Made by a program: the position numbers and the translations under genes. Below the pieces are notes generated by a model. It did not search any database. It was given only the letters and a program-made list of their open reading frames with translations, and was not told where the DNA came from. Of a stretch of 48,743 nucleotides of DNA, positions 9,335 to 48,560 are shown piece after piece. The stretch is from positions 1 to 48,743 of the forward strand of contig JAZLAK010000018.1 of the NCBI GenBank assembly GCA_045613165.1. The letters run 5' to 3'. This stretch comes from Bacilli bacterium (GTDB taxonomy: Bacteria > Bacillota_I > Bacilli_A > RF39 > UBA660). The stretch's first letter is position 1; every line of letters begins with the position of its first letter.

Positions 9335-10090
9335 TTAATATCTAAATAATATTTTTAAAACTTGATTAATTGTATTCATATTTAAAAATACAATTAATAA
9401 ACTACTTACCAAAAATGGTCCAAACGGTAACATATTATCTTTATTTTTAAAAGTTATATACAAAGCATAAGGGAATGCTAAGAATGACGCTAATACAATA
9501 TAAATTATACCTAATTTAATTCCTACTAACATACCAGCTACAAAAGATAATTTAATATCTCCTCCACCTAATGCTTCTTGTTTAAATGCTAAATACCCAA
9601 ATAATCTAAGTAAATAAGCAACACCAAATATAACTAGTCCACTAACTAATGACATTAGCGCATTAATTATTCCAACATCATACCATTTTATTAAAAATAT
9701 AAGTATCGCGCTAACAACTAATGGACTATCATTTATAATCATATATTTAGAATCACTTACAAATATTATAATAACTAAACTAGCAACAATAACTGCTAAA
9801 AAGAAATTTGGAGTTATTCCAAAAACTTTATAACACAAAGCAAATAAAGCTCCACTTAATAATTCCATTAAGAAATATATTGAACCAATTGGTTCTTTAC
9901 ATTTCTTACATAAACCACCTAATAATATATAACTTAATATTGGAATATTTTCATACCATTTTAATACGTGTCCGCACTTTTCACAATGACTACCAGGTTT
10001 AACTATAGATCTCTCCTCTGGTAATCTAGTACCAACAACCCCATAAAATGAACCAAATATAGCACCAATAATAAATATTAAATATAACAT
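9335..10090 (-). CDS. prepilin peptidase (A24 family, PilD/ComC-type)
   Basis: N-terminal Cys pairs (CEKCGH...CKKCKE), a polytopic membrane body, and the GGGDIKL catalytic Asp motif. Confidence 0.85.
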   Translation of the reverse strand: MLYLIFIIGAIFGSFYGVVGTRLPEERSIVKPGSHCEKCGHVLKWYENIPILSYILLGGLCKKCKEPIGSIYFLMELLSGALFALCYKVFGITPNFFLAVIVASLVIIIFVSDSKYMIINDSPLVVSAILIFLIKWYDVGIINALMSLVSGLVIFGVAYLLRLFGYLAFKQEALGGGDIKLSFVAGMLVGIKLGIIYIVLASFLAFPYALYITFKNKDNMLPFGPFLVSSLLIVFLNMNTINQVLKILFRY

Positions 10091-33024: not shown

Positions 33025-35103
33025 TTATCCGTAAACATTCATATTATAAGTACCGTTTACAAACAAATCACATTCTGCTATTCTTCTTTTCTTTAAACCT
33101 TCTAAATAAGTACCTGAAGAATCACGTAATGCCTTTTGTTCCCACCAATTTGTACATAAAGCATCAGTTGAACTATATTTAGCATATGCATCAAAGAAAC
33201 CATTTATATTACCACAGTTAAATTGTAAACTTGCTAATGCACCAATTTGATTTTCACTTAAAGTAATACCTTTTGTAGATAGCATTCCCCTTATATTATT
33301 TAATCTTCCTTCAACATCTTCATAATATATTGAGTCAACTATTGCCTTAGGAACTAAACTTCCAACAGATAAAGTATCAGGATTTATACCATGTGCTCTA
33401 AATGCATCTGCATTATATTTTAATGTAATACCATGACCTACAGTAGGAATATCACCTTTATTTTGATAAACTTTATAATATTCACCTTCAACAGGACCAG
33501 TACCTTCCATATAGCCTATCCATTCTAACAATTGACTACCTGCACCACTAGGTCTAGGATTGTCAGCAGAAACAAAATTTAAAGGATCTTGAGTTGATGA
33601 TAAATCATTACCTCCAACTCTTACTTCAAAATGTAAATGTGCTCCTGTTGAGCTTCCACTATTTCCTACTTTACCAATTACTTGACCTCTTTTTACACTA
33701 TCTCCCATTTCAACATTAATACTATCTTTAGATAAATGTGCATATACAGTATAATTATTATCAACATGTTGAATAATAACGTAGTTTCCATATCCACCAC
33801 CACATGATTTATCTCCACCATCATTACAACTAACTCCATCACTTTTGGTAGATTTTATAACTACACCATCTTTACTAGCTATTACATTAGTAATTCCTTG
33901 ATCACCGGGAATATCAATTCCATTGTGCTTAGAATTTGGTTTACCAGTTACTGGATGAGTTCTAAAACCATATTTACTAGAAATAGATGTTTTTGCTGGA
34001 TCGCCCATTGCCATTATAGAACCACCTGACTCAGTAGTTTCATTACTTCCTATAGGCCACCAATAAAGATTGGAATTAGCACTATTAAAAGATTCTGAAA
34101 CTTTAGAAAAATTATCTAAACCATACATTTCTAATACACTTTTTATTCCTGCAATAATTCTCTTTCTAGCTTTAATAATATCATCTTTATGTTTTTCTAA
34201 TAACTCAGGATCACTTTCAGTAGCTTTATAAAAATCTTCCATACTTTTATATCCACTACGTTGCAACACTACATCAAAATAACTTCTTAAATGTTTTTTG
34301 TTATCAAAATAATCACTATTTTCTAAAAAATCATAAAAGAATTCTTCATTAACTTGTTTTTCGCTTGAAGTTTTTAAATAAGGAGATTTATATCCTAACT
34401 CTTTAGCAGCAGCATTACATTTTTTTTCATTTTCAGTTCCTAAAAAAGATAAACCTAAAGAATCAAAAAATGTACCTTTATACTTATCTATCTCAGCAAC
34501 ACATTTGCCATCAAGTACTTTAATAGAAGCTACTGAACAAGCTTGATAAGAATTTCCATTAGAATCAGTATATGTTTGAGGAGATTCATTAGCTTCACCA
34601 TAACAAACAGTACTATAACCAATAAAATTATTTATCAAACTTTTTAGACTATCAGTTTCATTATCAAAATACGATTTTGCTGTAACTCTATCACCATCGT
34701 CACTACCAATAAACTTATTCTTCGTAGTTTCATCTTCATCTATTTTATATGGATTATATTTTTTTTCTTCACTAGGATCAGCAAATGAATCAGCATTTAA
34801 ACCATAAAATACAGTAGCAATAATTATATTATCATTAACATATCCATATTTTTTTTGAACTTGATCTAATATTTCATATAACCTAGTATAGAACTTTTCT
34901 TTAGTTTTTAAAACATCATCAACACATTCTGTATCATCCTCATCACAAGTCGAAGTCCAAAAATTTTTATTTTGCTCTAAAAGTTTATCCCAATCAAAGT
35001 TAGAATATGCAAAACTAGCTGCATAAACACTAACTTTAATAGAAAAAAACGTTATTAAAAGAAAACTTAAAATAAGTAAACTTTTCAATAACTTTTTTTT
35101 CAT
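33025..35103 (-). CDS. secreted bifunctional peptidoglycan hydrolase: M23 metallopeptidase plus GH24 (phage-type) lysozyme
   Basis: Signal peptide. M23 motifs HNGIDI and GSSTGAHLHFEV. The C-terminal EWIGYMEG...IPTVGHGITL...QIGALASLQFNCG...GLKKRRIAE pattern is typical of GH24. Confidence 0.8.
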   Translation of the reverse strand: MKKKLLKSLLILSFLLITFFSIKVSVYAASFAYSNFDWDKLLEQNKNFWTSTCDEDDTECVDDVLKTKEKFYTRLYEILDQVQKKYGYVNDNIIIATVFYGLNADSFADPSEEKKYNPYKIDEDETTKNKFIGSDDGDRVTAKSYFDNETDSLKSLINNFIGYSTVCYGEANESPQTYTDSNGNSYQACSVASIKVLDGKCVAEIDKYKGTFFDSLGLSFLGTENEKKCNAAAKELGYKSPYLKTSSEKQVNEEFFYDFLENSDYFDNKKHLRSYFDVVLQRSGYKSMEDFYKATESDPELLEKHKDDIIKARKRIIAGIKSVLEMYGLDNFSKVSESFNSANSNLYWWPIGSNETTESGGSIMAMGDPAKTSISSKYGFRTHPVTGKPNSKHNGIDIPGDQGITNVIASKDGVVIKSTKSDGVSCNDGGDKSCGGGYGNYVIIQHVDNNYTVYAHLSKDSINVEMGDSVKRGQVIGKVGNSGSSTGAHLHFEVRVGGNDLSSTQDPLNFVSADNPRPSGAGSQLLEWIGYMEGTGPVEGEYYKVYQNKGDIPTVGHGITLKYNADAFRAHGINPDTLSVGSLVPKAIVDSIYYEDVEGRLNNIRGMLSTKGITLSENQIGALASLQFNCGNINGFFDAYAKYSSTDALCTNWWEQKALRDSSGTYLEGLKKRRIAECDLFVNGTYNMNVYG

Positions 35104-35118
35104 TTTATCACCTACCTA

Positions 35119-36921
35119 TTAAAATCCTCCGCCAGAACCAAATGAATCTAATTCTTCTTGAGTAAGGATTACATTAATTCTCATACGTCTACTTCCACAT
35201 ACAAACAATGCCTCTCCTTGACTATAACCTTTAATGCTTTCCTTTTCATTATCATTTAAATCTATTAATCTAGATAAATCTTCAACAGCTTGTTTCTTTA
35301 ATCCCATAACTAAGTAATATGAAGCATTATCAAATATTGCTTTACCATGAACTATTACATTTTCAGCAGCAAAGTCTGTAGGTTGTTGAGTAATTATTAT
35401 AGTACCAGTATTATACTTTCTACTACGTCTTTGCATTTGAGCTAAAAACTCAGCACCTAATTCATTTCTACCGCCTAATAAAACATGAGCTTCATCTACC
35501 ATTAATACTGTATTAACACTAGGATCTAAACATAATCCCCAAGCATACTTTAATATATTAAAGAATAATGCATTTCTAATACTTTCATCACTATTCATTA
35601 ATTCACGAATATTAAATACCATAAAATCACTATCTTGACTTATAGTTGTATGACCATTAAAGTAATATCTTAATTCCTTAACAAAAGGACGAATCTTTAA
35701 TTCTAATCTTTCCATTACATCTTTTTCACGAGTTGCTTCAGGCATAGATAAAAGTTTACCTTTAATAGTACTATATACATCATCAAATGTTGGATAATCT
35801 TTAGATGTAAAACCGCTAAAATCAGTATTAAAATCTATTTTAAAACGTTTATAAGTATCTTGAACAACTTCACTAAACATAGCTAAAACATCTTCTTCAA
35901 TATCAGGACTATAATATTTCAAGAATGCTTTTAAAGATTGTAACGTACGAGTTAATACTGTATATCCTAAACCATTTTTTAATTCTTCTTCATCAGCATC
36001 TACAACTACTTCTAATGGATTTATAATACCAAATTGACCACCCTTACCTAAGTCAATAAAATCTCCTCCAAAAGATTTAGTCATTTCTTCTAACTCACCC
36101 TCTGGGTCAATACAAATTAATTGACAACCATTTCTAATATGAGTTCTTAACATTAACTTAGCAGCAGTTGATTTACCACTACCACTTGTACCTAAAATAA
36201 TTAAGTTAGCATTATTTCTATTAAATTCTTTCTTAGTTTGATATAAGAATTGATTAAATAGAACAACACCACCAGAGAAGTCAACTCCTAATAAAGTTGG
36301 AGCAGTAAATTCTCCTCCTGGGTCTTTTATACTATCAAACACAAATGGATACATTGCAGCAATTGTTGGACTTGGTATTGGAATACCAACTCTCTCTTCA
36401 ATATCTTGTTTAGGGAATATTGGTATCATTGATTTAAGTACTTTTTCTTGTTCAAACATCATAGGAATACCACGCATACCTAGAGCATCTAAATAATTTC
36501 TAGTTTGCATCTTTTTCATTTCTAATTCTTCTTTAGAATCAGCAGATAACATTACATGCATTTGGAAATCAAATATTTTAGATTGAGTAGCTGCTAACAT
36601 AGAAACAAAACTTTCTAAAGATTCATAATCTTGACGAATACTTTCTTGCATTGTTCTATCATTTTCATGTTGATATCTTTCTTTTAAGTCCGCTATCTCT
36701 TTATTAATCATTTTACTCATTGTACTAAATTCAATTGGAATATGTTTAACAACAACTTTAACACCAGGTAAATTAGTAACATTACTTAAAAATCCAGGAC
36801 CAATTAATTTAGGATAATTAATTATTGTTAAAATAGTACAATATTTATCACTTATTACAAAATCATTTAATTTAAAATCTATTCCCTTTGGAGCTATTTC
36901 ACTCTTAAATGTATTAGACAC
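35119..36921 (-). CDS. VirB4-type T4SS ATPase, C-terminal 600 aa part (GTG start)
   Basis: Walker A LGTSGSGKSTAAK and Walker B LMVDEAHVLL. It begins with the middle region of Gram-positive VirB4/TcpF/PrgJ-type proteins, not their N-domain. Confidence 0.85.
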   Translation of the reverse strand: MSNTFKSEIAPKGIDFKLNDFVISDKYCTILTIINYPKLIGPGFLSNVTNLPGVKVVVKHIPIEFSTMSKMINKEIADLKERYQHENDRTMQESIRQDYESLESFVSMLAATQSKIFDFQMHVMLSADSKEELEMKKMQTRNYLDALGMRGIPMMFEQEKVLKSMIPIFPKQDIEERVGIPIPSPTIAAMYPFVFDSIKDPGGEFTAPTLLGVDFSGGVVLFNQFLYQTKKEFNRNNANLIILGTSGSGKSTAAKLMLRTHIRNGCQLICIDPEGELEEMTKSFGGDFIDLGKGGQFGIINPLEVVVDADEEELKNGLGYTVLTRTLQSLKAFLKYYSPDIEEDVLAMFSEVVQDTYKRFKIDFNTDFSGFTSKDYPTFDDVYSTIKGKLLSMPEATREKDVMERLELKIRPFVKELRYYFNGHTTISQDSDFMVFNIRELMNSDESIRNALFFNILKYAWGLCLDPSVNTVLMVDEAHVLLGGRNELGAEFLAQMQRRSRKYNTGTIIITQQPTDFAAENVIVHGKAIFDNASYYLVMGLKKQAVEDLSRLIDLNDNEKESIKGYSQGEALFVCGSRRMRINVILTQEELDSFGSGGGF

Positions 36922-37474
36922 TACTCATCACCGTCCCAAACTCACTCTTCATATTCCCGTTAAAGAAACTATCAATTACTACTCTTAAGTCTTCATCACT
37001 TACTTGTCTAGAATTTAAACCAGATGTAGCAAGATTACTAATTAAAGTATGAATTCTTTTTTGTAATACTTCAGTTTTCTTATCTCTAAACAAAATATAA
37101 TATTCAGTATCTACTGCATTAACAGTTGTATTTCTAAACATTTCACCTTTATCTATATCTTGTTTAATTAATTTTCTTATTTGTTGACTTTGAACATTGT
37201 TATACATTAATTGTAATTGTGCCAAATACATATTTATATCAACAGGTCTATCACAAACAACCAACCAAAATTCATAATCAATTACATTATAAAAATTTCT
37301 TAAATTAAATATAATATTATTTTGTTCTTGATAATCAAGAATAAATATATTTTTAGGTTCTATTCTAACTCCAGTTACATAATAATCATTATCTAACTGT
37401 ATCATACCATTCTTTATAGTTTTAATAGGAACCCAATCTTCCGTATATTTGCTAGTATTATTATTTTTCGCCAC
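36914..37474 (-). CDS. VirB4 N-terminal-domain-like protein (separate 186 aa ORF)
   Basis: DWVPIKTIKNGMIQLDNDYYVTGVRIEPKNIFIL... resembles the N-terminal start of Gram-positive VirB4 homologues. Overlaps the ATPase ORF by 8 nt (GTGTCTAA). Confidence 0.55.
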   Translation of the reverse strand: MAKNNNTSKYTEDWVPIKTIKNGMIQLDNDYYVTGVRIEPKNIFILDYQEQNNIIFNLRNFYNVIDYEFWLVVCDRPVDINMYLAQLQLMYNNVQSQQIRKLIKQDIDKGEMFRNTTVNAVDTEYYILFRDKKTEVLQKRIHTLISNLATSGLNSRQVSDEDLRVVIDSFFNGNMKSEFGTVMSSV

Positions 37475-37775
37475 GATTCATACACCAACCTCTCCAATAA
37501 TGACTTCTTCTATTAGTAAAGTAATTATAAACATTACCTATAAAAGTTCTAATATTATGATGATTTGGTACTGGAAGTACCAAAAAAGCACTTATCAAAG
37601 CAGGAGTAATTATCATAAAAGCCTGCTTTAAATTACTTGTATCCATTATAAATAACAATAAGAATGTTATTACACAACCAGTACCAAATATAACTAAATC
37701 AGTAGGATTAAAGAAGCCAAGTATCAACATAGACTTCTTTGAATTCGCTGGTATCAAATATCCATTTTCACCCAT
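37461..37775 (-). CDS. small two-TM membrane protein, VirB3-like (PrgI/TcpE class)
   Basis: 104 aa with two hydrophobic helices, immediately upstream of and overlapping the VirB4 genes. Confidence 0.5.
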   Translation of the reverse strand: MGENGYLIPANSKKSMLILGFFNPTDLVIFGTGCVITFLLLFIMDTSNLKQAFMIITPALISAFLVLPVPNHHNIRTFIGNVYNYFTNRRSHYWRGWCMNRGEK

Positions 37776-37793: not shown

Positions 37794-40268
37794 TCATTTT
37801 TTATCTTTTCTTTCTTGCTCTAATTTAGTTTGATGTTTATAAGCTACACTTAATTTATCTGCACTTAATTGACCTTTTAATGCACCAGAAGAACCATTTA
37901 AACCTTCACGAGCTTTTCCAGTAATAGGATCTATAGAACCATCACCTTCCAATAATTTAACAATTAAATCTTCGCTAACTAAATTTCCATTACCATCTAC
38001 AACTTTATTATCTTTTATAGTTAATGAACCAAGTTGATCCATTTGAGCATCACTTAATTGTAATTTCTCTCTTATTATTTCTAATTCTACTGGATCTGAA
38101 TTTAAAGATTGACTAAACTCATATGCAACATAAGCAGCATTTTGAAGATTATTTTTAATTGCATCTACACGCTTTGACTTCATTTGTTGTTCCAATCTAC
38201 TAATAGCATTATCTAAATCAGCACCTGCAGAAATACCGTCATACCCATGACCAGCAGCTTGAGCTGCTTTCATTTCTTTTAAACGTGTATCCATCGCTGT
38301 ATAACCACCACTCTTATACATACTTTCATAATCATCAAAATGACTTATTACATCTTCCTCATATTTAATAGTATCTAATATATCTCGACCACCATCAAAC
38401 CCTGTCCAAGAACCAGCAGCAGCTACAGAATCTCCTATACGACCTTTTATAACTCCTCTTAGATTACCGCCATGCAATGCTTTATATTTAGCTCTTTCTT
38501 TTCTTTTTGCAGTAGTTTCATCAATCGCACGATCAGCATTCATCCCTAAATTATCTAAAGTGCTTCCATAGCCAGCTTTAGCTCCTCTTCGAGCACCTCC
38601 TACTAATCCACCTACAGTGCTACCTATAACACTACCAATACTCTTTCCTTCTCTAATACTTCTAAACATATTACGCGAAGCACTTCCAAATCCTCCTCGA
38701 GCCAGTCCCATTGCTCCCATTGCAAGTTTATTGTCACTAAGTTGTTTCTTAGGACTTTTAAGACTAAAGTTCCCTTTTCCTCCACCGAAGAATTGTTTAA
38801 ATAATTCTGGTGCTTCTAAAGCAAACTGTAATATTCCTAATATAACTACAACTGATGCTAAACCAGATAATAATGAAAAACCTCCAGTAGTTGCAAATAA
38901 ATTAGAAATAACATCTGGAACTAAACTTACTCCAAATAAAGAAAAATATATTATAATTAATCTAATAAATACATCTAAATATGTATTTAATAATTCTTTT
39001 AACCATTTATCAAATATAGCTTCCTTTTGTTTCGGAACAATTCTCATCATTACAGTTATAGGTGATACAATTTGTAAAAATCCTAACTTAGCAACTCGCT
39101 TTCCAATTGCTAAAGTATAACATACAAACATATACAAACCTAAACAACCAGCTATAAATGCTAAAAAATAATTAAATTCAAAAGTATCTTCATCACCTTT
39201 TATTCTATTAATAAATTCCGAATCTTCATTGAATACAGCCATATTTCCAGAATATTTTGCCATATCTACATCATAAACATAAAAAGCACAAATTTTCTTT
39301 TCATCTTCAGTATCTATTTTTCCATTTTGAGTATCATCACTACTTGTATTACCTTCATCAAATGTATAATTACAACTAGAATCATTTCCACAAGTCTTTA
39401 AATAATTAACACATTCATTATAACCAAATTTTGTTGGATGATAAAAAGCTGAAAAAATGGTTGGAGCAACTATTCTTGCTCCTTTTTCCACATCAGGCAA
39501 AGCATTATACAATTGACATGATGCAGATAAATTTGTAGTTACTTGATTGTCGTTATAACCAAACCAAGTTGCTATTTGTTTTATACCACCTACAATAGTA
39601 CCACCTACACAGCCTATAACACCACCAGCTGCTGCTCCTATACCAAGCCCCGCAGCATGACCAATAATATTTCCAACAACCGGAACCGCTGAACCAATTG
39701 TAGTACCTCCTACAGCTCCAACAGTACCACCAATGGCAGCACCGCCAGCACCACCTTTAACACAATAAGTACCAATAGAAACATCTTGTTTTTCAGCATC
39801 AATATGTGTATTTAGCATCTCCATATCAGCATAATCACAATCATCTTCAGAAGTTGAATCTCCTAATATAATTTGTCCAATAATATTACTATTTAATACA
39901 TGATATTGAAACGTATTCATATATTTAAATATTGTTGGCAACAAAATAATTAAAACTAAAGATATTATAGTTTCTTTAACAATTTTTGTAGTTTGACCTG
40001 TACTTTTCTTTTCTTCAGGATTTATAATCATAAGTACAAGATTATACGCAAAAATAAATAGCATCGCTATTCCCATTATTACATACAATCTACCTGTAAT
40101 TTGTTCAAAAACTTCATCACTAAACAAACTAACATTAGCTACAGTAACAAATAATTGATAAATAGTTGAAATTAACCCATATACCATAGAGTTAAGACTT
40201 AACCATATACTCATCCAAGTTTCAGCTACTGCTTCAGTAAAAAAACCACCTAAACTTAATAAACTCAT
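37794..40268 (-). CDS. VirB6/TrbL-like polytopic channel protein with glycine-zipper insert and ~330 aa hydrophilic C-terminal domain
   Basis: 824 aa, multiple TM helices, and a TrbL-like core (LGFLQIVSPITVMMRIVPKQKEAIFDKWLKELLNTYLDVF). Size and tail resemble TcpH/Orf15-type proteins. Confidence 0.65.
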   Translation of the reverse strand: MSLLSLGGFFTEAVAETWMSIWLSLNSMVYGLISTIYQLFVTVANVSLFSDEVFEQITGRLYVIMGIAMLFIFAYNLVLMIINPEEKKSTGQTTKIVKETIISLVLIILLPTIFKYMNTFQYHVLNSNIIGQIILGDSTSEDDCDYADMEMLNTHIDAEKQDVSIGTYCVKGGAGGAAIGGTVGAVGGTTIGSAVPVVGNIIGHAAGLGIGAAAGGVIGCVGGTIVGGIKQIATWFGYNDNQVTTNLSASCQLYNALPDVEKGARIVAPTIFSAFYHPTKFGYNECVNYLKTCGNDSSCNYTFDEGNTSSDDTQNGKIDTEDEKKICAFYVYDVDMAKYSGNMAVFNEDSEFINRIKGDEDTFEFNYFLAFIAGCLGLYMFVCYTLAIGKRVAKLGFLQIVSPITVMMRIVPKQKEAIFDKWLKELLNTYLDVFIRLIIIYFSLFGVSLVPDVISNLFATTGGFSLLSGLASVVVILGILQFALEAPELFKQFFGGGKGNFSLKSPKKQLSDNKLAMGAMGLARGGFGSASRNMFRSIREGKSIGSVIGSTVGGLVGGARRGAKAGYGSTLDNLGMNADRAIDETTAKRKERAKYKALHGGNLRGVIKGRIGDSVAAAGSWTGFDGGRDILDTIKYEEDVISHFDDYESMYKSGGYTAMDTRLKEMKAAQAAGHGYDGISAGADLDNAISRLEQQMKSKRVDAIKNNLQNAAYVAYEFSQSLNSDPVELEIIREKLQLSDAQMDQLGSLTIKDNKVVDGNGNLVSEDLIVKLLEGDGSIDPITGKAREGLNGSSGALKGQLSADKLSVAYKHQTKLEQERKDKK

Positions 40269-40278
40269 TTTGTCACCT

Positions 40279-40632
40279 CTACTCTATACAAACATTACTA
40301 TCAATTGATACTAAATCTAAAAGTAAATTAATTAATACTGGCAAAAAGAAAAGTATTATAGCGCATACCAATCTTTTCAAAAGTATCTGAAAAGCTTTTT
40401 TTAAACCTTTATCATCTTTAGCAGTTACTGCTTTAATAAAATCATAAGTACTTAAACCAATTATCAATAAAGGAACTATTATTTTTACAAAATCAAAAAC
40501 ATTTTGTAAATCTTGTTTAACATCTCCCCAACTATTGCAATCTAAAGTATCAGCAAAAACAATAGTTTTAAAACTATACATTACTAAAAATATAATCATA
40601 AATATATATATAAATTTCTTATTACTCTTCAT
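40279..40632 (-). CDS. VirB2/T4SS-pilin-like protein, paralogue 1
   Basis: Signal peptide (…TIVFA/D), then two TM helices flanking a K/D-rich loop. Shares the core IIVPLLIIGLSTYDFIKAV...LPVL with the ORFs at 40714 and 43086. Confidence 0.55.
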   Translation of the reverse strand: MKSNKKFIYIFMIIFLVMYSFKTIVFADTLDCNSWGDVKQDLQNVFDFVKIIVPLLIIGLSTYDFIKAVTAKDDKGLKKAFQILLKRLVCAIILFFLPVLINLLLDLVSIDSNVCIE

Positions 40633-40713: not shown

Positions 40714-41067
40714 TTAATTACATTGACTTGGATGTAAGAAACAAGTTTCACAAGTTTTGAAACTTTCAGCATCTGCTGAATAATCATTAACAAATGTACC
40801 AAAAATCCATAAAACTAAATTTGGAATTAAGAATATTACTATACCAGCAATAACTCTATAAATTAATCTCTTAGTTTGTTTCTTAATTTCATCTTCTTTT
40901 TCTGCTATAACTGCTTTACCAAAATCAAATATACCTAAAGCAATAATTAATAAAGGAATAGCAATTTTAAATACTAATAAAATATATCCTATAATTTGCA
41001 CTATATCTTTCATTTGTGTACAAAATGATGTAATATCAAATCCAGCAGCTAAACTAAATAAATTCAT
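40714..41067 (-). CDS. VirB2/T4SS-pilin-like protein, paralogue 2
   Basis: Core IAIPLLIIALGIFDFGKAV...FLIPNL and C-terminal KTCETCFLHPSQCN. Has its own promoter. Confidence 0.55.
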   Translation of the reverse strand: MNLFSLAAGFDITSFCTQMKDIVQIIGYILLVFKIAIPLLIIALGIFDFGKAVIAEKEDEIKKQTKRLIYRVIAGIVIFLIPNLVLWIFGTFVNDYSADAESFKTCETCFLHPSQCN

Positions 41068-41096: not shown

Positions 41097-41125
41097 ATTT
41101 TAAAAAATATAACCTTTATTGTCAA
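41097..41125 (-). promoter_or_regulatory. internal promoter (TTGACA-17-TAAAAT) for pilin-like paralogue 2
   Basis: On the minus strand, TTGACA (41125-41120), a 17 nt spacer, and TAAAAT (41102-41097). An AGAAGAGG RBS follows. Confidence 0.5.
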
Positions 41126-41130
41126 CCTTT

Positions 41131-42165
41131 TTAAAATCTTTTGCCAAATAAACCACGTTTTTTAAAATTATCTCCACACTTAGTATATCCTAATTTAGTT
41201 AATAATTTATCAACGCTTATAACTCTATCTAAATTATCTCTAAAATTAGATACTACACTAAACACTTTAATTTTACTTTCAACTTCGAACTCAGCAACTT
41301 GATTATCATCCATATTAGTTCTATTAATAACAACCTTTTCTCCACTTAGTTCTTCAAATATTTTACCATTTCTTCTAATCAACTTTGTCATTTTAATAGT
41401 ACCAGGTTCAATTAAATATATGATATCAGAACAAAACGCTTTGCTATCTACTGCATTTAAATCAACAATAACAGCATCAGCATCTTGATGATCTTTTATT
41501 TTTTTCAACACTTCTTCTTTACTAGTACAAGAATATAAATTAGGAGTATCAAAGAAAATAAAATCTTGTTTATTCATCTCTATACCGATAGCTTTATACT
41601 TTATATTCAATTGTTTTACCATTTGTACAACTAAAGTAGTTGCACCAGCATGTTCAGTTAAATTTACAACACCAATAATCTTTTTATTACCATTATATTT
41701 ATCAGGTAAAACGAAATCTTGAAAAGTAAACTCTTTATCATAATTAATCCCTAATTCTTCATCTATTTCTTTATTTATTTCATAAGAACTTTTACTAATT
41801 TGTAAATTTGATACATCTTTAAACTCTTTAGGACTATTAAACATTTCAATAATTTCATTATAATTTATAGTAAAATTATAAACTCCTAAAGTAACTAAAT
41901 CACTTATAAAATTTTCATTATTACTAATATCATTTAAATATAATATAATTTTTTTACTATCTATACTCTCAAATAACTTCTTTAAATTATTATAATCATT
42001 ATAATCTTTAATAGCAGTTACATCTAATATCATTTTATTAAAGAAAAAATTAGTAAACATATCAATTAATTCTTCTACAGTATAAATACCATCTACACTT
42101 TTAATAACATCTATACTCAAACTATTAAGTTCATATCTTTTCTCATTACTAACTATAACATTCAT
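41131..42165 (-). CDS. two-domain protein: receiver-like N-domain plus ParA/MinD-fold domain with degenerate P-loop (TadZ/CpaE-like architecture)
   Basis: The N-terminal ~115 aa show an alternating beta/alpha pattern. KIIGVVNLTEHAGATTLVVQMV lacks the Walker lysine. DAVIVDL is Walker B-like. Confidence 0.35.
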   Translation of the reverse strand: MNVIVSNEKRYELNSLSIDVIKSVDGIYTVEELIDMFTNFFFNKMILDVTAIKDYNDYNNLKKLFESIDSKKIILYLNDISNNENFISDLVTLGVYNFTINYNEIIEMFNSPKEFKDVSNLQISKSSYEINKEIDEELGINYDKEFTFQDFVLPDKYNGNKKIIGVVNLTEHAGATTLVVQMVKQLNIKYKAIGIEMNKQDFIFFDTPNLYSCTSKEEVLKKIKDHQDADAVIVDLNAVDSKAFCSDIIYLIEPGTIKMTKLIRRNGKIFEELSGEKVVINRTNMDDNQVAEFEVESKIKVFSVVSNFRDNLDRVISVDKLLTKLGYTKCGDNFKKRGLFGKRF

Positions 42166-42179
42166 ACTTTAACCCACCT

Positions 42180-42656
42180 TTAACATGTTGAAGTATCATT
42201 TGGAAAATAAATTGATTCCGTTTCCCCTTTTATTCTAAAAGTTGTTAAATCACCAAACATAGGTAAATCTATTTTAAAAAACACTACAACTCTAAAAAAT
42301 TCTTTATCAATAACTGTAGTTGAAGCATCATTAGCATCTTTAGAAATACAATAGTAACCCTTATTACTACTACTCTTACTTCCATCCAAATTATATGCAA
42401 TATATTCGTACGGATTTTTATCATTTTTTTCCGGACAAGTCCCAGGAACTAAATAACCATCTGTTTTTAAATATTCCCCTATTTTCTTTCTAGCACAAGG
42501 ATTATTGCCTTCATATTTACTAATCAAATCAACAATATTATTCTTTACATCAAATGCTTTCGCATAATTTATTGAAACAGCTAAAAAAGAGGCAAAGAAC
42601 ACTATAAATGTTATTACCAACCCAAATAACCAAGTTCCTCCAATTGCCTCTCTCAT
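42180..42656 (-). CDS. TadE-like pseudopilin candidate / bitopic exported protein
   Basis: MREAIGG followed by a 22 aa hydrophobic segment, then a beta-rich domain with 4 Cys and an ending (FRVVVFFKIDLPMFGDL...) reminiscent of TadE-type proteins. Confidence 0.3.
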   Translation of the reverse strand: MREAIGGTWLFGLVITFIVFFASFLAVSINYAKAFDVKNNIVDLISKYEGNNPCARKKIGEYLKTDGYLVPGTCPEKNDKNPYEYIAYNLDGSKSSSNKGYYCISKDANDASTTVIDKEFFRVVVFFKIDLPMFGDLTTFRIKGETESIYFPNDTSTC

Positions 42657-42677
42657 ATTTCATTACCTCACTTTTAA

Positions 42678-42989
42678 TTATTTAGAAAAAATAATCATGC
42701 CAGTACCAGTTCCAGTACCAGTACCAGTTCCAGTTCCAGTTGAATTTGTTGTTTTATCATCACAATATACTGTACCAGTTGTTGAACATTCATCATTTTG
42801 ACAGTATTCACATTTAACTTTACCACTTGTACCATCTGGTTGACAGTTAAATGCTTGTGAACAACGTGTAGAAGCTGTAATTCCAGACTTTATAGAAGGC
42901 CAAATTAATGTAGTAAACAATACTCCTACTGCCGCAATAGCAACTACTGCTACGGCAGTCATACTTAATTCTCCACTTGCTTCTTTCAT
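42678..42989 (-). CDS. pilin-like protein with class-III-signal-like N-terminus, 6-Cys domain and (TG)7 tail
   Basis: MKEASGE followed by a 22 aa Ala/Val-rich hydrophobic helix. Has its own strong promoter and an AGGAAAGGA RBS. Confidence 0.4.
   Translation of the reverse strand: MKEASGELSMTAVAVVAIAAVGVLFTTLIWPSIKSGITASTRCSQAFNCQPDGTSGKVKCEYCQNDECSTTGTVYCDDKTTNSTGTGTGTGTGTGTGMIIFSK
42699..42740 (-). repeat. hexanucleotide tandem repeat (ACTGGN)x7 encoding (Thr-Gly)7
   Basis: Seven consecutive in-frame ACT-GGN units, read directly near the 3' end of the pilin-like gene. Confidence 0.9.
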
Positions 42990-43085: not shown

Positions 43086-43544
43086 CTAATTATCACTTAT
43101 ATTACAATTACCAGGTTTTAATAAACAATCAGCACAAGTTTTATATTGACCTGTTTCAATAATATTTAATTTATCACTCATACTAAATACTACAGCTACT
43201 ATATTTGGTACAAAGAAAACTATTAAACCAGCTAATATTCTTATACCCAATTGTTTAACTTGTTTACCTAAACTTTTTTCATCTTTATCTATTACAGACT
43301 TAGCTAAATCAAATGTTCCTAAACCAATTATGATTAAAGGAACAGCAACTCTAGCTATTAATAAAACATATCCAAATAATCTCATAACTGTTTTAATGGA
43401 ATTTTCATCACAAGGATTTTCAGCAACATATTCTACAGCTTGAGTAGTTGAAGGTGCAGCATTAACATTCATTGCACAAAACATAAAAAACGATAATATA
43501 AATAAACTAAATACAAATATTCTTTTCTTACTACTCATATTCAT
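43086..43544 (-). CDS. VirB2/T4SS-pilin-like protein, paralogue 3
   Basis: Start reset to MNMSSKKR (ATG at 43544 or 43538), which overlaps the upstream stop codon. Signal peptide (…NVNA/A), core VAVPLIIIGLGTFDLAKSV...FFVPNI, and C-terminal KTCADCLLKPGNCN. Confidence 0.55.
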   Translation of the reverse strand: MNMSSKKRIFVFSLFILSFFMFCAMNVNAAPSTTQAVEYVAENPCDENSIKTVMRLFGYVLLIARVAVPLIIIGLGTFDLAKSVIDKDEKSLGKQVKQLGIRILAGLIVFFVPNIVAVVFSMSDKLNIIETGQYKTCADCLLKPGNCNISDN

Positions 43545-44541
43545 ACTTATCCCCCATCTTACTTTGAATGAATTTTTTATAAATATAATATCCACCAGCT
43601 ATTAACGCTAATATTAAAATAATTATAAATATAATACTTAATGCATTAGATTTTTCTTTTAAGGATATATCAAGAACATAAACATTTTCAGTTCCATCTT
43701 CTGCAGTAACAGTTATAGTAACTCTACTACCATCAGTTAAATTTTCATTACCTGTAATAGTTACTACCGCTTTCTCATCCTCTACTTCATAATCTATTTC
43801 CAATTCACTAACTTGAGAATCCAATTTAATTGGATATTCATTGATTTTTGAATTGAATGGTATATTATATCCTTTAACACTTAAAGAACTTAATTTAGCA
43901 TTACTAGACATAATATAAACTTCTTTTGAAATATTAATTTTATATTCAGTAGAACTATTATCAGTACCAATTACTATTATACTAATTACACTACCATTTT
44001 CTATATTAGTATTATTCTTTATTTCTACTTTACTATTTTCATCTTCTGGTATAGCGGTAATATCTATTGAATTAATAGTAGAATCTACATTTACTGTATA
44101 TTCATAAATTTCTGGATTAAAAACTATATTCCCATTAGATAAAGTTAGTGATTTTAATTTTGTATTAACAATTACTGCTGTTGTTGTAGTTGTTGATGAT
44201 GTAGTTTTTGTTGTTTTTGTTTTAGTAGTTTTCTTTGTAGTAGTAAACTTAGCACCATTTGAGGTTCTAGAACAATCATAATCAAAAACAATATAACAAC
44301 TTCTAGTTTCTCCTATATTACAAACTTTATTAGTGAATTCTTTACATGTATCAGTTACTGTACTAGTATACGGAGATTTGTTCCCATTAGAACAACTATA
44401 TGTTTTAGGATTATCATACACCAATTCGTAATTAAAGTTATTTTTACATGTTGCAGTTACGCTATACTGACGTTGTTCAGCATTAATAATACTTGGAAAA
44501 ATTAACATTCCTATAACAAATAACAATAAATTTTTCTTCAT
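43531..44541 (-). CDS. TM-anchored surface protein: 6-Cys N-domain, T/K linker, two cadherin-like beta-sandwich repeats
   Basis: Signal peptide. Repeats of the type LKSLTLSNGNIVFNPEIYEYTVNV... and LSSLSVKGYNIPFNSKINEYPIKL.... C-terminal TM helix plus a charged tail. No LPXTG. Confidence 0.6.
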   Translation of the reverse strand: MKKNLLLFVIGMLIFPSIINAEQRQYSVTATCKNNFNYELVYDNPKTYSCSNGNKSPYTSTVTDTCKEFTNKVCNIGETRSCYIVFDYDCSRTSNGAKFTTTKKTTKTKTTKTTSSTTTTTAVIVNTKLKSLTLSNGNIVFNPEIYEYTVNVDSTINSIDITAIPEDENSKVEIKNNTNIENGSVISIIVIGTDNSSTEYKINISKEVYIMSSNAKLSSLSVKGYNIPFNSKINEYPIKLDSQVSELEIDYEVEDEKAVVTITGNENLTDGSRVTITVTAEDGTENVYVLDISLKEKSNALSIIFIIILILALIAGGYYIYKKFIQSKMGDKYEYE

Positions 44542-44554
44542 ATTTTCAACTCCT

Positions 44555-44583
44555 AAAAAAAGAAGATAATATGATTACCTTCT
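44555..44583 (-). terminator. internal rho-independent terminator
   Basis: On the minus strand, a 10 bp stem agaaggtaat / attatcttct (one G-U pair) followed by T7. Overlaps a possible TTGAAA-18-TATTAT promoter. Confidence 0.55.
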
Positions 44584-44637
44584 CTAACTTTTCAATCATA
44601 TTCTATATAAATATGATAAACTATTTTATTAATAAAA

Positions 44638-45234
44638 TCAAATATTTTTAAATAAATTGAATTTTTTTGTTAATAACATAAAACTATATGATATTATTGC
44701 TACTATTCCCAATACTATAAAATATGTATTTACTCCTAGTTCCTCTTGTTCTCCTGGATCAGCACTATTATAATTATTTCCTACATTTGTATTGTTACTT
44801 ACTTGATTTTCTAATTGTACCGAACCATTTCCATTGTCACTTGTACATGTTATATAATATTCTTCTGAAAAATATCCTGTTCCGTTTATTTTTGTTCCTT
44901 CTTCTACATAAGGAGAATTACCTGTACTACCTAATGTATAATTTATATACTTTTCTCCATTAGAACATTTTACACTTCTACTTAATACTTTTTCTAAATT
45001 TAATGAATTTACATAACTTATACTACATGTTGTTCCATTACAAACTGCTTTACCATATACTGTTACCCAATCATTTCCATTTACATTTGTTGTTGTTATC
45101 CCATTAGTATAATTAGATTGTAATGTTGAATAATTATCATCACCCGGATCAGCATTAGTTGCTGCAGCATTTACATTTAATCTTACAGCAACTAAACTAA
45201 TCATTATTATATTTAGTATTAATATCTTCTTCAT
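44638..45234 (-). CDS. TM-anchored surface protein, 4 Cys, unknown function
   Basis: Signal peptide (…NVNA/A), an N/G/T-rich ectodomain, and a C-terminal TM helix. The CSNG motif is shared with the 336 aa protein. Confidence 0.5.
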   Translation of the reverse strand: MKKILILNIIMISLVAVRLNVNAAATNADPGDDNYSTLQSNYTNGITTTNVNGNDWVTVYGKAVCNGTTCSISYVNSLNLEKVLSRSVKCSNGEKYINYTLGSTGNSPYVEEGTKINGTGYFSEEYYITCTSDNGNGSVQLENQVSNNTNVGNNYNSADPGEQEELGVNTYFIVLGIVAIISYSFMLLTKKFNLFKNI

Positions 45235-45246
45235 CTTTACCTCTCC

Positions 45247-48200
45247 TTATTCTTCAAAATACTCTCTATTAGCTTTCGATTTTTTCTTTACTATTATTAT
45301 GCCACTACTTACTAATATTATTACAACTCCAGCCACTATTGAAGCTATTTCTATTGTTTTATTGAAAGCATCTTTCTTTATGTCTATTGAATAAGTCTCA
45401 TATTCTCCATTTTCAGCAACAACTTTTACTCTAACTGTACTGAATCCAGTTAACTCATCATTACCTCTTATGAATACTTCTGCTCTATTATTATTTGGTA
45501 CAGCAGTTATTACTAAACTCTTTTCTTGTTTTATCTTAACTGTATATTCTTTTTTATTTGGATCAAAATCTATAGCTTTCTCATAATTTAATACTCTTAA
45601 ATCTTTTAATGTAGTATCATTTGAAACTTCTAATCCAAACTCTTTTCTTATTATCGTTAATCTATAATAACTTTCTTCATTTTCCTTATCGATTACTCTT
45701 ATTTCTATAAAGTTTTCTCCAACATCTAAACCTATACCCTTATTAGATACAACTTTATATTCAGTATCACTCTTTTTCTTAATACTTATACTAGCAATAC
45801 TATCTTCATCTTTTAATACACTATTTATATCTATTGTATCAGTTTCATAACCAACACTTAAACTATAATTTGCTATATCTTCTTCGAAAGGCATATATAC
45901 TCCAGGAATTACTAAATCTTCTATTTGTAAAGATTCTTTTGTTATTGTATCAGTACCTTCTTTTACAAAAGTTAATACATAAGTTCTTGTACTTCCTGTT
46001 TCACTTTTAACTTTTATTAATTTAACTGTTGTATCTCCATTAATATCAATTATATCAGGTTCATAACCACTAACATAACTAGCTTTATTACTTGCTATAG
46101 TTGCTTGAACATCCACACTAGTAGTTGATTTAGGAACTTCAATTTTATAATCAGTTACATTAGCATTAAAGTTAATATCGCCAACATTTAATATTATATC
46201 ACTTAAAGTATTATCACTTGTTCTACTATCAGTTCTAGTTACTAATATTGTATATGTTCTAGTAATGCCTTCTTTATTTTGAATCTTAATTAATACAGTA
46301 TTTATACCATAATTCAAATTAACTGTTCTTGGTTCAAAACCATCAACATATTTAGAATCTGTACTTGTTAATGTTGCATAAACACTAACAGTTGGTGAAT
46401 CTACTTCTAATTTATATTCCATATCATATGGGTTAAATGCATCTGCAACGACTTTACTATCTTTGCTTAAATCATTTGATAATCTAACATAATTATTGTT
46501 TTTAACATCAGCAACTTTATATGCTGTACCTGAACTTACAGGATTTTGAACATTACCATTTGCATCATATAATTGTAATTTATTAATTGTTGTATTCGTA
46601 TTAGTAGTATCTATTACAGCGCCACTAACCGCATTACTTATATTACCTTTGCTATCTCTTACCCAAATATATTTAACACCCGGACTTGATTCTATTGTAA
46701 ATGAATTACCATTAATTGGTACCCAAGTATTACTATCAGTTGGAGTTAAATAATAATCACTAGTAAAATATGAATCAATAACTCCTTCTTTAGCAGTAGC
46801 AGTTACTCTAATTGTTCCATAACCATTACTTTGTACTATTCCACTTGTTACGGATAATGTTGGTTTAGCACTATTTCCTTTTGTACAACTAACTCTATAA
46901 GTTCTTGTACATATTCCTTTAGAATTACAACTTTCTTTACTTTCAGCAGATACAGCTGTTCTGTCAAAATAATATCCGTTCTTAGTATCACATTTATAAT
47001 ATTCTTCTAAAAGTTCTTTAACTTCAGCATTAGTAGCATCTTTATCATAACAAATTGTATAAGAACTAGCCTTTCTCATACTCTTCATAGAAGTGTTAGA
47101 ACATTTATTATCTTCCAACTTATCACAAGCTTTTTTAGCATCACTTTGATTATCATCTAAATAATCTTTATCAATAGTACCATTTTCACTTATTTCACCA
47201 CTGGATTTCTTGATTTTAGTATAATTACAAGCATCACTAGTACAAGTTGTTATATATAATTGGTCTCCACAAGAATAATTTTGACCATTTAATTTTACAT
47301 ATCTATATCCTACATCTTCTGGAGTAGCAGTAGCAGTATTATCCGCACTACACGCTGCACCTTCATAAGTGCTAGCTAATTTCATTCTATAAATTTTTCT
47401 ATATTTTCCAGTAGAATTTTCATAATAATAACAATAATCTGTTCCACTTTCTTTTGTACAATACTCTATCCAAATTTGTTGTCCACATGTAAAATCTACA
47501 GAACCACCATCAGCAACATAATCTTTTTGTAAATATCTATATCCTCCGATATCTTCTCTATAACATGCATAAAAATCTGTATTAGCACTAACAGTAAATG
47601 AACTATCTTTAACGATTACATTACTATTACAATTTGGAGCACCATTTGAAACAGTTTTAGTCCATCCAATTAATTGACCTTGTCCATCTCTATACATACT
47701 TGAAGAACTAGCTGGAAAATTAACTTTAGTACCACCAGCAATTCCAGTTTTTTGACAAACTCCAGCAGTTGGAACTGAAAAACCAGCATCACAAGCTAAA
47801 CCATATCCATAATTTTGATCAAATAAAACTTTATAAGTTATTACCGTAGGAGAAGAACCTCCAGAAGAACCTCCAGATGTTCCACCACTTGAGCCTCCAA
47901 AAACACTACAACTTCCACTAGTAATATTACAACATCCATTATTGTTATTCCATAAATGACATTTACCTGAAACTACTTTAGCATTACAACTAGATTTTGT
48001 CCAAGTACCATAATTAGATTGTCCACAAGTATTTCCATTTTTCTTACTTGAAGTATTACAACATTTATTTGTTGAATCATAAGTATATCCTCTACCTGTA
48101 CATTCACTTATACTTCCCCAAGCTTTATTTGTTGTGCCGCATGTACTAAAACTTGTTGTTACTTTTCTTGTTGTAGTCGTATTAGAAGAACTTAACCCAG

Positions 48201-48525
48201 CATAACACGCGCCTTGTCTCCATATACATCCACTACTTGTACACTTACTATGATCTTTTATACTTCTACAATAACTTGTTGTTATCTTTCTTGTAGTTGT
48301 TGTAGTTTTCTTAGTAGTTTTCTTACTTGTTATCTTTGTACCATTATAACAAGCATTTTGTCTCCATATACAATTATAACCACCTGCTGTCTTACCTTGA
48401 CAATTAGTTTTTGATTTTATTGAAGTACATGTTGCAGCTTCTACAAACATTCCCATAATGAAAAAAAACAACATTCCCACAAATAACTTACTTAATTTTC
48501 GTTCATTAAAAGTTTTACTACTCAT
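45247..48525 (-). CDS. large cysteine-rich TM-anchored surface protein/adhesin with 4-5 C-terminal cadherin-like repeats
   Basis: Start reset to MSSKTF (GAGAGG SD upstream). Signal peptide, duplicated C-x-SIK...CIWRQxACY modules, a GGS linker, a Listeria-Bacteroides-repeat-like segment, repeated YRY...C modules, repeats of the type TLSDIILNVGDINFNANVTDYKIEV..., and a C-terminal TM helix. Confidence 0.65.
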   Translation of the reverse strand: MSSKTFNERKLSKLFVGMLFFFIMGMFVEAATCTSIKSKTNCQGKTAGGYNCIWRQNACYNGTKITSKKTTKKTTTTTRKITTSYCRSIKDHSKCTSSGCIWRQGACYAGLSSSNTTTTRKVTTSFSTCGTTNKAWGSISECTGRGYTYDSTNKCCNTSSKKNGNTCGQSNYGTWTKSSCNAKVVSGKCHLWNNNNGCCNITSGSCSVFGGSSGGTSGGSSGGSSPTVITYKVLFDQNYGYGLACDAGFSVPTAGVCQKTGIAGGTKVNFPASSSSMYRDGQGQLIGWTKTVSNGAPNCNSNVIVKDSSFTVSANTDFYACYREDIGGYRYLQKDYVADGGSVDFTCGQQIWIEYCTKESGTDYCYYYENSTGKYRKIYRMKLASTYEGAACSADNTATATPEDVGYRYVKLNGQNYSCGDQLYITTCTSDACNYTKIKKSSGEISENGTIDKDYLDDNQSDAKKACDKLEDNKCSNTSMKSMRKASSYTICYDKDATNAEVKELLEEYYKCDTKNGYYFDRTAVSAESKESCNSKGICTRTYRVSCTKGNSAKPTLSVTSGIVQSNGYGTIRVTATAKEGVIDSYFTSDYYLTPTDSNTWVPINGNSFTIESSPGVKYIWVRDSKGNISNAVSGAVIDTTNTNTTINKLQLYDANGNVQNPVSSGTAYKVADVKNNNYVRLSNDLSKDSKVVADAFNPYDMEYKLEVDSPTVSVYATLTSTDSKYVDGFEPRTVNLNYGINTVLIKIQNKEGITRTYTILVTRTDSRTSDNTLSDIILNVGDINFNANVTDYKIEVPKSTTSVDVQATIASNKASYVSGYEPDIIDINGDTTVKLIKVKSETGSTRTYVLTFVKEGTDTITKESLQIEDLVIPGVYMPFEEDIANYSLSVGYETDTIDINSVLKDEDSIASISIKKKSDTEYKVVSNKGIGLDVGENFIEIRVIDKENEESYYRLTIIRKEFGLEVSNDTTLKDLRVLNYEKAIDFDPNKKEYTVKIKQEKSLVITAVPNNNRAEVFIRGNDELTGFSTVRVKVVAENGEYETYSIDIKKDAFNKTIEIASIVAGVVIILVSSGIIIVKKKSKANREYFEE

Positions 48526-48560
48526 ATTAAAACCTCTCACTTTCTATTTTATACATCTTA

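Follow-up and report, generated by a model that had tools for sequence, protein, structure and literature searches.

Canonical Flp pilins, the subunits of Tad/Flp (type IVc) pili, carry the motif G / XXXXEY after the leader, within a hydrophobic segment of about 20 residues. In Clostridia, tad loci without any recognisable prepilin were described in 2011 (PMC3244431), and there is precedent for a prepilin peptidase that several systems share or whose gene is not in the tad cluster (PMC13091076; PMC6668835). Another component of these systems, TadZ/CpaE, combines an atypical receiver (REC) domain and a deviant Walker A motif with a C-terminal amphipathic helix (PMC13170226; PMC6668835), and forms a ring of dimers around the CpaF motor (PMC6668835; PMC13170226). 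[quoted passage not shown] Here we describe a module of three genes, hereafter the trio, from a Bacilli bacterium (RF39; UBA660; assembly GCA_045613165.1, contig JAZLAK010000018.1), in a stretch of DNA of 48,743 nt that is referred to as the window. We think it fairly probable that the trio forms one half, the subunits and the organiser, of a highly divergent pilus of Tad type (type IVc-like), joined to a chromosomal and relaxase-less T4SS of the Gram-positive type. Our literature search found no paper on these protein families or on their linkage to T4SS.

The window is a chromosomal contig of low GC content (~27%), with nearly all genes on the minus strand. Three tightly packed open reading frames (ORFs) of 103, 158 and 344 amino acids (aa) fill positions 41131-42989 and are flanked by T4SS genes:

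42678..42989, minus strand: 103 aa small pilin-like protein, candidate major subunit (ORF, family alignment, logo)
42180..42656, minus strand: 158 aa pseudopilin-like protein, candidate minor or initiator pilin (ORF, alignment, AlphaFold2 model)
41131..42165, minus strand: 344 aa TadZ/CpaE-like organiser (AlphaFold2 model, Foldseek, family alignment)

Synteny of the trio was followed by tblastn over 80 related genome loci of uncultured gut Bacilli (RF39/'Tenericutes'-like), where it is near-complete, the three genes having 80, 77 and 70 matches. A second sample of 80 metagenome loci was recovered using as query a 297 aa membrane protein that is encoded upstream of the same families in relatives. 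No match was found on plasmids in tblastn searches with the 344 aa and 297 aa proteins.

The first two proteins of the trio open with closely similar leaders, MKEASGE and MREAIGG, each running into some 22 hydrophobic residues, and no other ORF in the six frames of the window fits the pattern M[KR][EDQN][AVST]x[GS] followed by a hydrophobic run. This bears out the resemblance that an earlier note, made from the DNA letters alone, had pointed to. Logos were built from all fetched loci. For 155 distinct small proteins the consensus is M-K-E-A-T-G-E-L-N-M-T-V, with G6 in 149; for 130 distinct larger proteins it is M-[RK]-E-[AS]-I-G-G-T-W-[LI]-F, where position 6 holds G 109 times, S 10 times and A 4 times. 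Judged by these alignments, conservation of the leader is far beyond chance, and the simplest reading of the M-[KR]-E-A-x-G sequence, which ends in a small residue next to the hydrophobic helix, is that of a class III signal, for prepilins, of non-canonical form. Short charged leaders of this kind have the class III form, as the earlier note had suggested, with E+5 absent.

The 103 aa protein is made up of the six-residue leader MKEASG, a hydrophobic helix of ~24 residues and a Cys-rich, variable C-terminal half. In the family alignment M1, K2, A4, G6, E7 and L8 are invariant and Cys residues are conserved. The ratio of nonsynonymous to synonymous substitution rates (dN/dS), computed here and below within the window's clade, is 0.2-1.0 for the whole gene, of which the N-terminus is invariant and the C-terminus fast-evolving. 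Members of the family span 58-103 aa, and in relatives their genes sit between those for platform-like and pseudopilin-like proteins. The small size, the short leader whose closing Gly abuts a hydrophobic helix, and the tad-type operon setting are all traits of Flp-type pilins. When 58 relatives were scanned one by one with hidden Markov models (HMMs), the only recurrent Pfam signal was a weak, sub-threshold match to archaeal Pilin_N (PF07790), in 6 of the 58 with a best E of 0.0076; in one paralogue of the small family the same model reached E 0.0028. Near its C-terminus the window's protein has an unusual tail, encoded by a short repeat:

42700..42741, minus strand: hexanucleotide tandem repeat of 7 copies, encoding (Thr-Gly)7 (Tandem Repeats Finder: period 6, 7.0 copies, 91% matches)

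This (Thr-Gly)7 tail is present in the window sequence only, being absent from all aligned homologues, and could form a length-variable or glycosylated tip. The earlier note had credited the gene with a strong promoter of its own, which our scan does not support: 35 sites were found against 35.7 expected from shuffles, none of them upstream of 42989. By eye, just a TGnTATAAT-like extended -10 element can be made out at this gene.

In the 158 aa protein, the leader MREAIG(G) is followed by a long N-terminal helix and a small β-sheet domain. The AlphaFold2 model, with a predicted local distance difference test score (pLDDT) of 78.6, has a helix at 5-47 (43 residues), a short helix at 53-65 and four strands, and the topology so modelled looks pilin-like. 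The gene is under purifying selection, with a dN/dS of 0.18-0.45. Among 59 relatives scanned individually, PF13400 (Tad) was found in two, at E 0.14 only. We rejected a relationship of this family to DUF5411, as hhalign aligned just the first 16 residues with a probability of 16%.

The 344 aa protein consists of an atypical receiver-like domain (residues 1 to ~122), a disordered linker, a domain of MinD/ParA fold (~160-330) and a C-terminal tail, KKRGLFGKRF; a short basic-hydrophobic tail is found in many members of the family, the window's included. An AlphaFold2 model based on 40 diverse homologues gave two α/β domains with a pLDDT of 88.6. Using Foldseek, the C-terminal domain matched HypB, MinD, FlhG and ParF at E 4e-6 to 1e-4 with a probability of 1.0, the N-terminal domain matched receiver domains (RcsB, PleD), and PDB 3fkq was matched across both domains, over 412 alignment columns. 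The title of this entry is 'NtrC-like two-domain protein', from Eubacterium rectale; it is the TadZ structure of that species which Xu et al. (2012) reportedly describe. The architecture of a receiver-like domain joined to a ParA/MinD domain with a lysine-less P-loop, which the earlier note had assigned to TadZ/CpaE, is therefore confirmed for the fold and not for the sequence.

The P-loop, NLTEHAGATT in the 344 aa protein and KNxTxHAGATT as the consensus of its family, has lost the signature lysine as well as the catalytic one, and the Walker A motif is more degenerate than that described for TadZ. E196 and D235 are invariant in the family. The protein is probably ATPase-dead and, because the Walker A motif is degenerate (HAGATT), it is uncertain whether it binds ATP. 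Its homologues fall into 1502 clusters, with 369 representatives at 50% clustering, and none of the clusters is named or has a Pfam domain. A dN/dS of 0.13-0.33 indicates purifying selection. Identification as a partition protein of the ParA/MinD type, which the earlier note had listed among the findings that would refute its reading, was rejected: the lysines of KGGxGK[ST] are absent, there is an extra receiver-like domain, and the neighbours are pilin-like and T4SS genes.

Although no operon with TadA/CpaF, TadB/C and pilin genes surrounds the 344 aa gene in the window, such an operon is seen in relatives. The pilin-like genes have a motor operon directly upstream of them in 43 genome loci out of 80 and in the majority of the 80 metagenome loci; the gene order there is DUF5411, RcpC/CpaB, a T2SSE ATPase, a 297 aa and a 262 aa protein, a pair of small and a pair of larger pilin-like proteins, and the TadZ-like protein. 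The two small and two larger proteins bear the same leaders as the window's pair. The RcpC/CpaB protein scores 29.2 bits with PF16976 against a cutoff of 28.8, and its gene is upstream of the ATPase in 101 loci. The ATPase scores 91-104 bits with PF00437; its best relative in the PDB is CpaF (2e-17), followed by VirB11 (3e-16) and archaeal FlaI/GspE, and one public source has it under the name 'pilus assembly protein CpaF'. Both membrane proteins (297 and 262 aa) are polytopic and strongly conserved, and have the size, position and topology of TadB/TadC; the platform-like protein comprises >8000 clusters, all unannotated. The ATPase and the 297 aa protein are also ultra-conserved, exact sequences recurring on at least 1000 contigs.

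In some clades the two halves appear to have been separated. The window and its closest relatives (L001-L015) carry a single small and a single large pilin-like gene in place of the usual two of either kind, and a second, distant clade (L020, L023, L034, L053, L068, L070) is reduced in the same way. In both clades the trio is preceded by genes for surface proteins and by housekeeping genes, and not by the motor operon, which is likewise missing next to the trio in L161. Conversely, motor operons stand alone in other loci (L104, L107, L113, L116, L131, L147, L155, L157, L170-L179), where unrelated genes follow and no pilin or TadZ gene occurs within 10 kb. All 297 aa proteins that are at least 77% identical to that of L113 are of the stand-alone type, whereas those followed by pilin and TadZ-like genes are at most 73% identical to it, a complementary pattern in the sequences that matches the separate clade of the window's trio. 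The exact proteins of the stand-alone operon are deposited for 'Clostridium sp. CAG:533' and are found on at least 1000 contigs, of up to 1.1 Mb. We conclude that the window's genome most probably encodes its motor elsewhere on the chromosome, and that a split of trio and motor operon within one genome is probable. The proposal of the earlier note that the system is divided over two loci was right in spirit, although the partner locus that it had named, the pilC and pilD genes considered below, was not supported beyond a possible role of PilD.

This reduced set of pilin-like genes, with no motor genes alongside, could also be taken to mean that the trio is a decaying, non-functional remnant of a Tad operon whose motor was lost in this clade. 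We regard this as highly improbable, given that the ORFs are intact in all members of the clade and the leader is invariant, that the 158 and 344 aa genes, at dS values of 0.6-1.0, have a dN/dS of 0.13-0.45, and that a second, distant clade keeps the same arrangement.

We propose that the trio works as follows. The 103 aa protein would be the major pilin, with an invariant N-terminal helix and a hypervariable, Cys-rich tip, and the 158 aa protein, by analogy with TadE/F, a minor pilin that primes or initiates assembly. After insertion of both proteins into the membrane, an A24 peptidase encoded in trans, possibly PilD of the window, would cut them behind Gly6. Assembly would be driven by the CpaF-like motor on the TadB/C-like platform, together with RcpC, and the 344 aa protein would dimerise, ring the motor ATPase at the membrane and position the machine. 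By analogy with its closest parallels, R64 conjugation and Ced DNA import, the pilus would probably provide cell-cell or cell-surface contact for the adjacent T4SS. Since most relatives have the pilus module directly upstream of their T4SS genes, and the pilin and TadZ-like genes remain within the T4SS cluster when the system is split, co-regulation of pilus and T4SS, and perhaps their co-localisation, is suggested. The analysis itself establishes the genes present, their synteny, the conserved motif, purifying selection and the TadZ-like fold; leader cleavage, formation of a filament, which peptidase acts, a T2SSF nature of the two membrane proteins and a functional tie to the T4SS are inferred.

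A number of results weigh against this proposal. The leader proteins lack the E+5 and Flp Y+6 residues of pilins, and in the 103 aa protein G6 is followed by ELSMTAV, without EY. The Flp model PF04964, a check that the earlier note had proposed, matches neither the 103 aa protein nor its 58 relatives (Pfam, NCBIfam), and hhalign of the small-pilin profile gave no match to an approximate sequence of the Flp pilin PilA of Caulobacter. The 158 aa protein had been said to end like a TadE pseudopilin; no TadE, Flp or CpaE match to it was obtained with Pfam or NCBIfam, TadE (PF07811) being equally absent from its 59 relatives, and Foldseek with its model returned no PDB match below E 0.2. The 344 aa protein has no match in Pfam, NCBIfam or PDB sequences, whether used as single sequence or as profile, and in its fold search 3fkq ranks only 44th, at E 9.5e-4. 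On the motor ATPase the NCBIfam models for VirB11 and the 'TadA family' score about equally, both below their curated cutoffs, and the 297 and 262 aa proteins give no significant T2SSF signal with Pfam, NCBIfam, PDB profile search or hhalign; run for the two against each other and against the window's PilC, hhalign yielded just two short motif-like matches. The window has no genes for RcpC, the motor ATPase or a Tad-type platform, so that we infer the motor of its own genome. Lastly, an A24 active-site motif occurs in none of the related loci, GGGDIK being found only at the window's pilD.

In another explanation there is no filament: the 103 and 158 aa proteins are uncleaved bitopic T4SS components, signal anchors that bind a partner through their conserved cytoplasmic N-termini, and a ParA/MinD-like spatial organiser of the T4SS, comparable to VirC1, is seen in the 344 aa protein. 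In its favour, the trio lies inside the T4SS cluster and between VirB2-like genes, and in the window's clade it remains with the T4SS genes while the motor genes are elsewhere; the missing E+5, the lack of any pilin HMM or fold match, and the ranking of MinD, ParF and HypB above TadZ in the fold search are also in keeping with it. However, the same families complete a Tad-type operon in most relatives, and three loci (L018, L037, L062) have the complete operon, including the 344 aa gene, without adjacent T4SS genes. Because the complete operon also occurs with no T4SS genes downstream, the 344 aa family belongs to the pilus module and not to the T4SS, and its receiver-like N-terminal domain and lysine-less P-loop fit TadZ and not VirC1 or ParA. 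Moreover, the paralogous sets of two small and two large proteins are like those of pilins and minor pilins, and exposed pilins typically combine, as is seen here, an invariant N-terminal helix with a hypervariable C-terminus. On balance we consider an origin of the trio as T4SS components unlikely, and retain the divergent Tad-type pilus.

Some other proteins of the relatives have N-termini that bear on the leader. A 650 aa protein encoded at 12034-13986 of L062, ~1 kb downstream of the TadZ-like gene, has a canonical type IV prepilin N-terminus, MKKGFTLVELLAVIAIMG, from which it follows that canonical and non-canonical leaders coexist in the lineage. A 555 aa protein of L047 (8315-9982) starts with MKASISNTW, a pseudopilin-type N-terminus fused to Peptidase_M15 (D-Ala-D-Ala dipeptidase-like), and in operons of the L113 type the DUF5411 protein (L113, 5200-6375; MKESLWGYW...) likewise has a pseudopilin-type N-terminus fused to an enzyme, here a Peptidase_C39_2 domain. 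These fusions may be cell-wall hydrolases that are borne by the pilus or associated with it.

Two further genes, at the other end of the window, encode a prepilin peptidase and a platform protein:

9335-10090, minus strand: pilD, prepilin peptidase of the PilD/ComC-type A24 family (A24_N_bact and Peptidase_A24; Pfam)
10099-11724, minus strand: pilC, 541 aa, PilC/GspF-type with two T2SSF domains (Pfam)

PilC has an N-terminal extension of ~135 residues before its T2SSF domains, with a hydrophobic segment and a Lys/Glu-rich stretch. Pfam searches upheld the earlier observation that these are the sole genes of their kind in the window and that a T2SSE ATPase is encoded nowhere in it; pilC also has no partner pilB or pilin gene there. 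The two genes lie just downstream of a ribosomal-protein operon, which separates them from the T4SS cluster. A dedicated peptidase of the TadV type (A24 without the N-terminal domain) is not found in the window, whose only A24 enzyme is of PilD type and ~31 kb from the trio. PilD, the one candidate in view for leader removal, may plausibly act in trans as the leader peptidase. An Rce1-like/CPBP intramembrane protease is encoded, with a metallophosphoesterase and divergently, next to the Tad-like operon in L170 (640-2066) and at homologous sites in ~10 loci. We did not adopt it as the alternative leader peptidase, as it adjoins the operon in a subset of loci only, and it may be conserved context only or an alternative leader protease.

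The earlier note had gone further and made pilC and pilD the partners of the trio, with the T4SS ATPases energising the filament. In that arrangement PilC would be the platform and PilD the peptidase, VirB4/VirD4 would supply the energy and no PilB/TadA would exist. The sole T2SSF and A24 genes of the window, which has no T2SSE ATPase, might be read in this way, and any cleavage of the leaders would need an A24 peptidase working in trans, as there is none near the system in any locus. Nonetheless, a dedicated T2SSE ATPase and two platform-like proteins adjoin the same pilin families in the lineage, whose genomes also contain stand-alone copies of the motor operon. Since the lineage has its own dedicated ATPase and platform-like genes, there is no need for the T4SS ATPases, and homologues of pilC and pilD were within 10 kb of the trio in none of the 80 genome loci. 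A two-domain PilC of the PilC/GspF type is typical of type IVa or Com systems, and the distance of ~30 kb from the trio, with the ribosomal-protein operon between, is most simply chromosomal context. We therefore judge a system built from the window's pilC and pilD and powered by VirB4/VirD4 to be very unlikely, and keep to a Tad-type pilus with a motor of its own.

The T4SS cluster in which the trio is embedded (27296-48540) includes the following genes, the last seven being identified with Pfam/NCBIfam:

43086..43595, minus strand: 169 aa VirB2-like protein, the third of the paralogues, carrying a signal peptide; directly upstream of the trio (tblastn cross-match to the 117 aa paralogues)
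40714-41067, minus strand: VirB2-like 'T4SS_pilin' gene, immediately downstream of the trio (PF18895)
40279-40632, minus strand: second VirB2-like 'T4SS_pilin' gene downstream of the trio (PF18895)
37794-40268, minus strand: VirB6-like
37461-37775, minus strand: TcpE/VirB3-like
36914-37474, minus strand: VirB4, one of two ORFs
35119-36921, minus strand: VirB4, the other ORF
33025-35103, minus strand: M23+lysozyme hydrolase
30323-31996, minus strand: NlpC/P60-like hydrolase
27296-29578, minus strand: VirD4

The two downstream VirB2-like proteins match PF18895 at E 5.4e-5 and 2.9e-3, both sub-cutoff, with a weak NCBIfam match to the Mbov_0395 pilin-like model, and their genes are syntenic in 67-69 of the 80 loci. 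The 169 aa paralogue is visibly similar in sequence to the 117 aa ones and has no significant Pfam match. Several of the T4SS proteins match NCBIfam models from the integrative and conjugative element (ICE) of Mycoplasma (Mbov_0395/0396/0397). The two parts of VirB4 overlap by 8 nt, with the N-terminal region of the VirB4 model of Mycoplasma type matched by the 186 aa ORF and the P-loop part contained in the 600 aa ORF, and as L161 shows the same split (187 + 600 aa) this is a conserved arrangement and not a frameshift error. The C-terminal ORF (35119-36921) has 90-99% protein identity between the window and the L001-L015 species (86% in L015), with 40-85% for neighbouring genes. No relaxase or integrase was detected in the cluster with Pfam and NCBIfam, and it is bounded by housekeeping genes, namely the ribosomal-protein operon in the window and RNase J in relatives; for these reasons it has the look of a chromosomal system that is passed on vertically, and not of an ICE.

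The best sigma-70-like site of the region, TTGACA-17-TAAAAT (11/12; 41097-41125, minus strand), is just past the stop codon of the 344 aa gene and upstream of the gene at 40714-41067, which suggests a separate transcription start for the downstream T4SS genes. The cluster is headed by two large surface proteins of 336 and 1097 aa (43531-48540, minus strand), which have Cadherin-like beta-sandwich repeats and C-terminal membrane anchors. They diverge fast, with 30-72% identity between relatives, and are candidate T4SS adhesins.

Taken together, these data might fit a broader picture, which we put forward tentatively as possible though doubtful. An order-level lineage of reduced-genome gut Bacilli would have a vertically inherited hybrid machine, in which a deeply divergent Tad-type pilus with a new class of leader (M-K/R-E-A-x-G, without E+5) is functionally coupled to a relaxase-less Gram-positive T4SS with VirB2-like arrays, and in some clades the pilin and TadZ-like genes would have been captured by the T4SS operon, with the motor operon left elsewhere. 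The hybrid would serve contact-dependent exchange of DNA or protein, and if so, such exchange would be central to the lifestyle of these bacteria. The three families of the trio are abundant in gut metagenomes and all are unannotated, so that recognising them as a Tad-type pilus would put a name to a surface machine that is conserved in the uncultured RF39-like Bacilli. The known range of class III signal sequences would also be extended beyond current pilin predictors, and a type IV filament with genetic linkage to a T4SS would be exemplified in a monoderm.

In comparison with known systems, the closest likeness is to the Tad/Flp (type IVc) pili of Gram-positive bacteria, which is seen in the gene set and its order in relatives, with RcpC/CpaB, a T2SSE ATPase, two membrane proteins of ~260-300 aa, pilins, pseudopilins and a TadZ-like protein. 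It extends to the lack of a secretin, a peptidase outside the cluster, and a small pilin whose short leader has Gly as its last residue ahead of a hydrophobic helix. [quoted passage not shown] As the sequence tests also fail for Flp, TadE, T2SSF and CpaE, with no HMM match to any of them, we set the system apart as a very divergent variant and not as a member of the Tad group. It further resembles the prepilin-less tad loci of Clostridia (PMC3244431), for which, if our reading is true, it may offer an explanation.

The 344 aa protein is like CpaE/TadZ in being encoded, in many relatives, in a pilus operon and in having a basic-hydrophobic C-terminal tail where CpaE has its amphipathic membrane-binding helix. 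It differs from TadZ/CpaE in that there is no similarity at sequence level, the support from the 3fkq fold is modest, and the Walker A motif is degenerate (HAGATT), whereas TadZ binds ATP.

As in R64 and in Ups-Ced, genes for a type IV filament are here encoded, or used, with a VirB4-based machine, presumably for cell contact. Those systems are, however, type IVb or archaeal, with canonical prepilins and diderm or archaeal hosts, whereas ours is Tad-like, chromosomal and monoderm, with no relaxase seen. Finally, the arrays of PF18895/VirB2-like genes beside VirB6, VirB3 and VirB4, in a reduced genome, are shared with the relaxase-less FATA-type T4SS of Patescibacteria and with the Mycoplasma ICE, from which the present system is distinguished by its host, which belongs to the RF39-like Bacilli.

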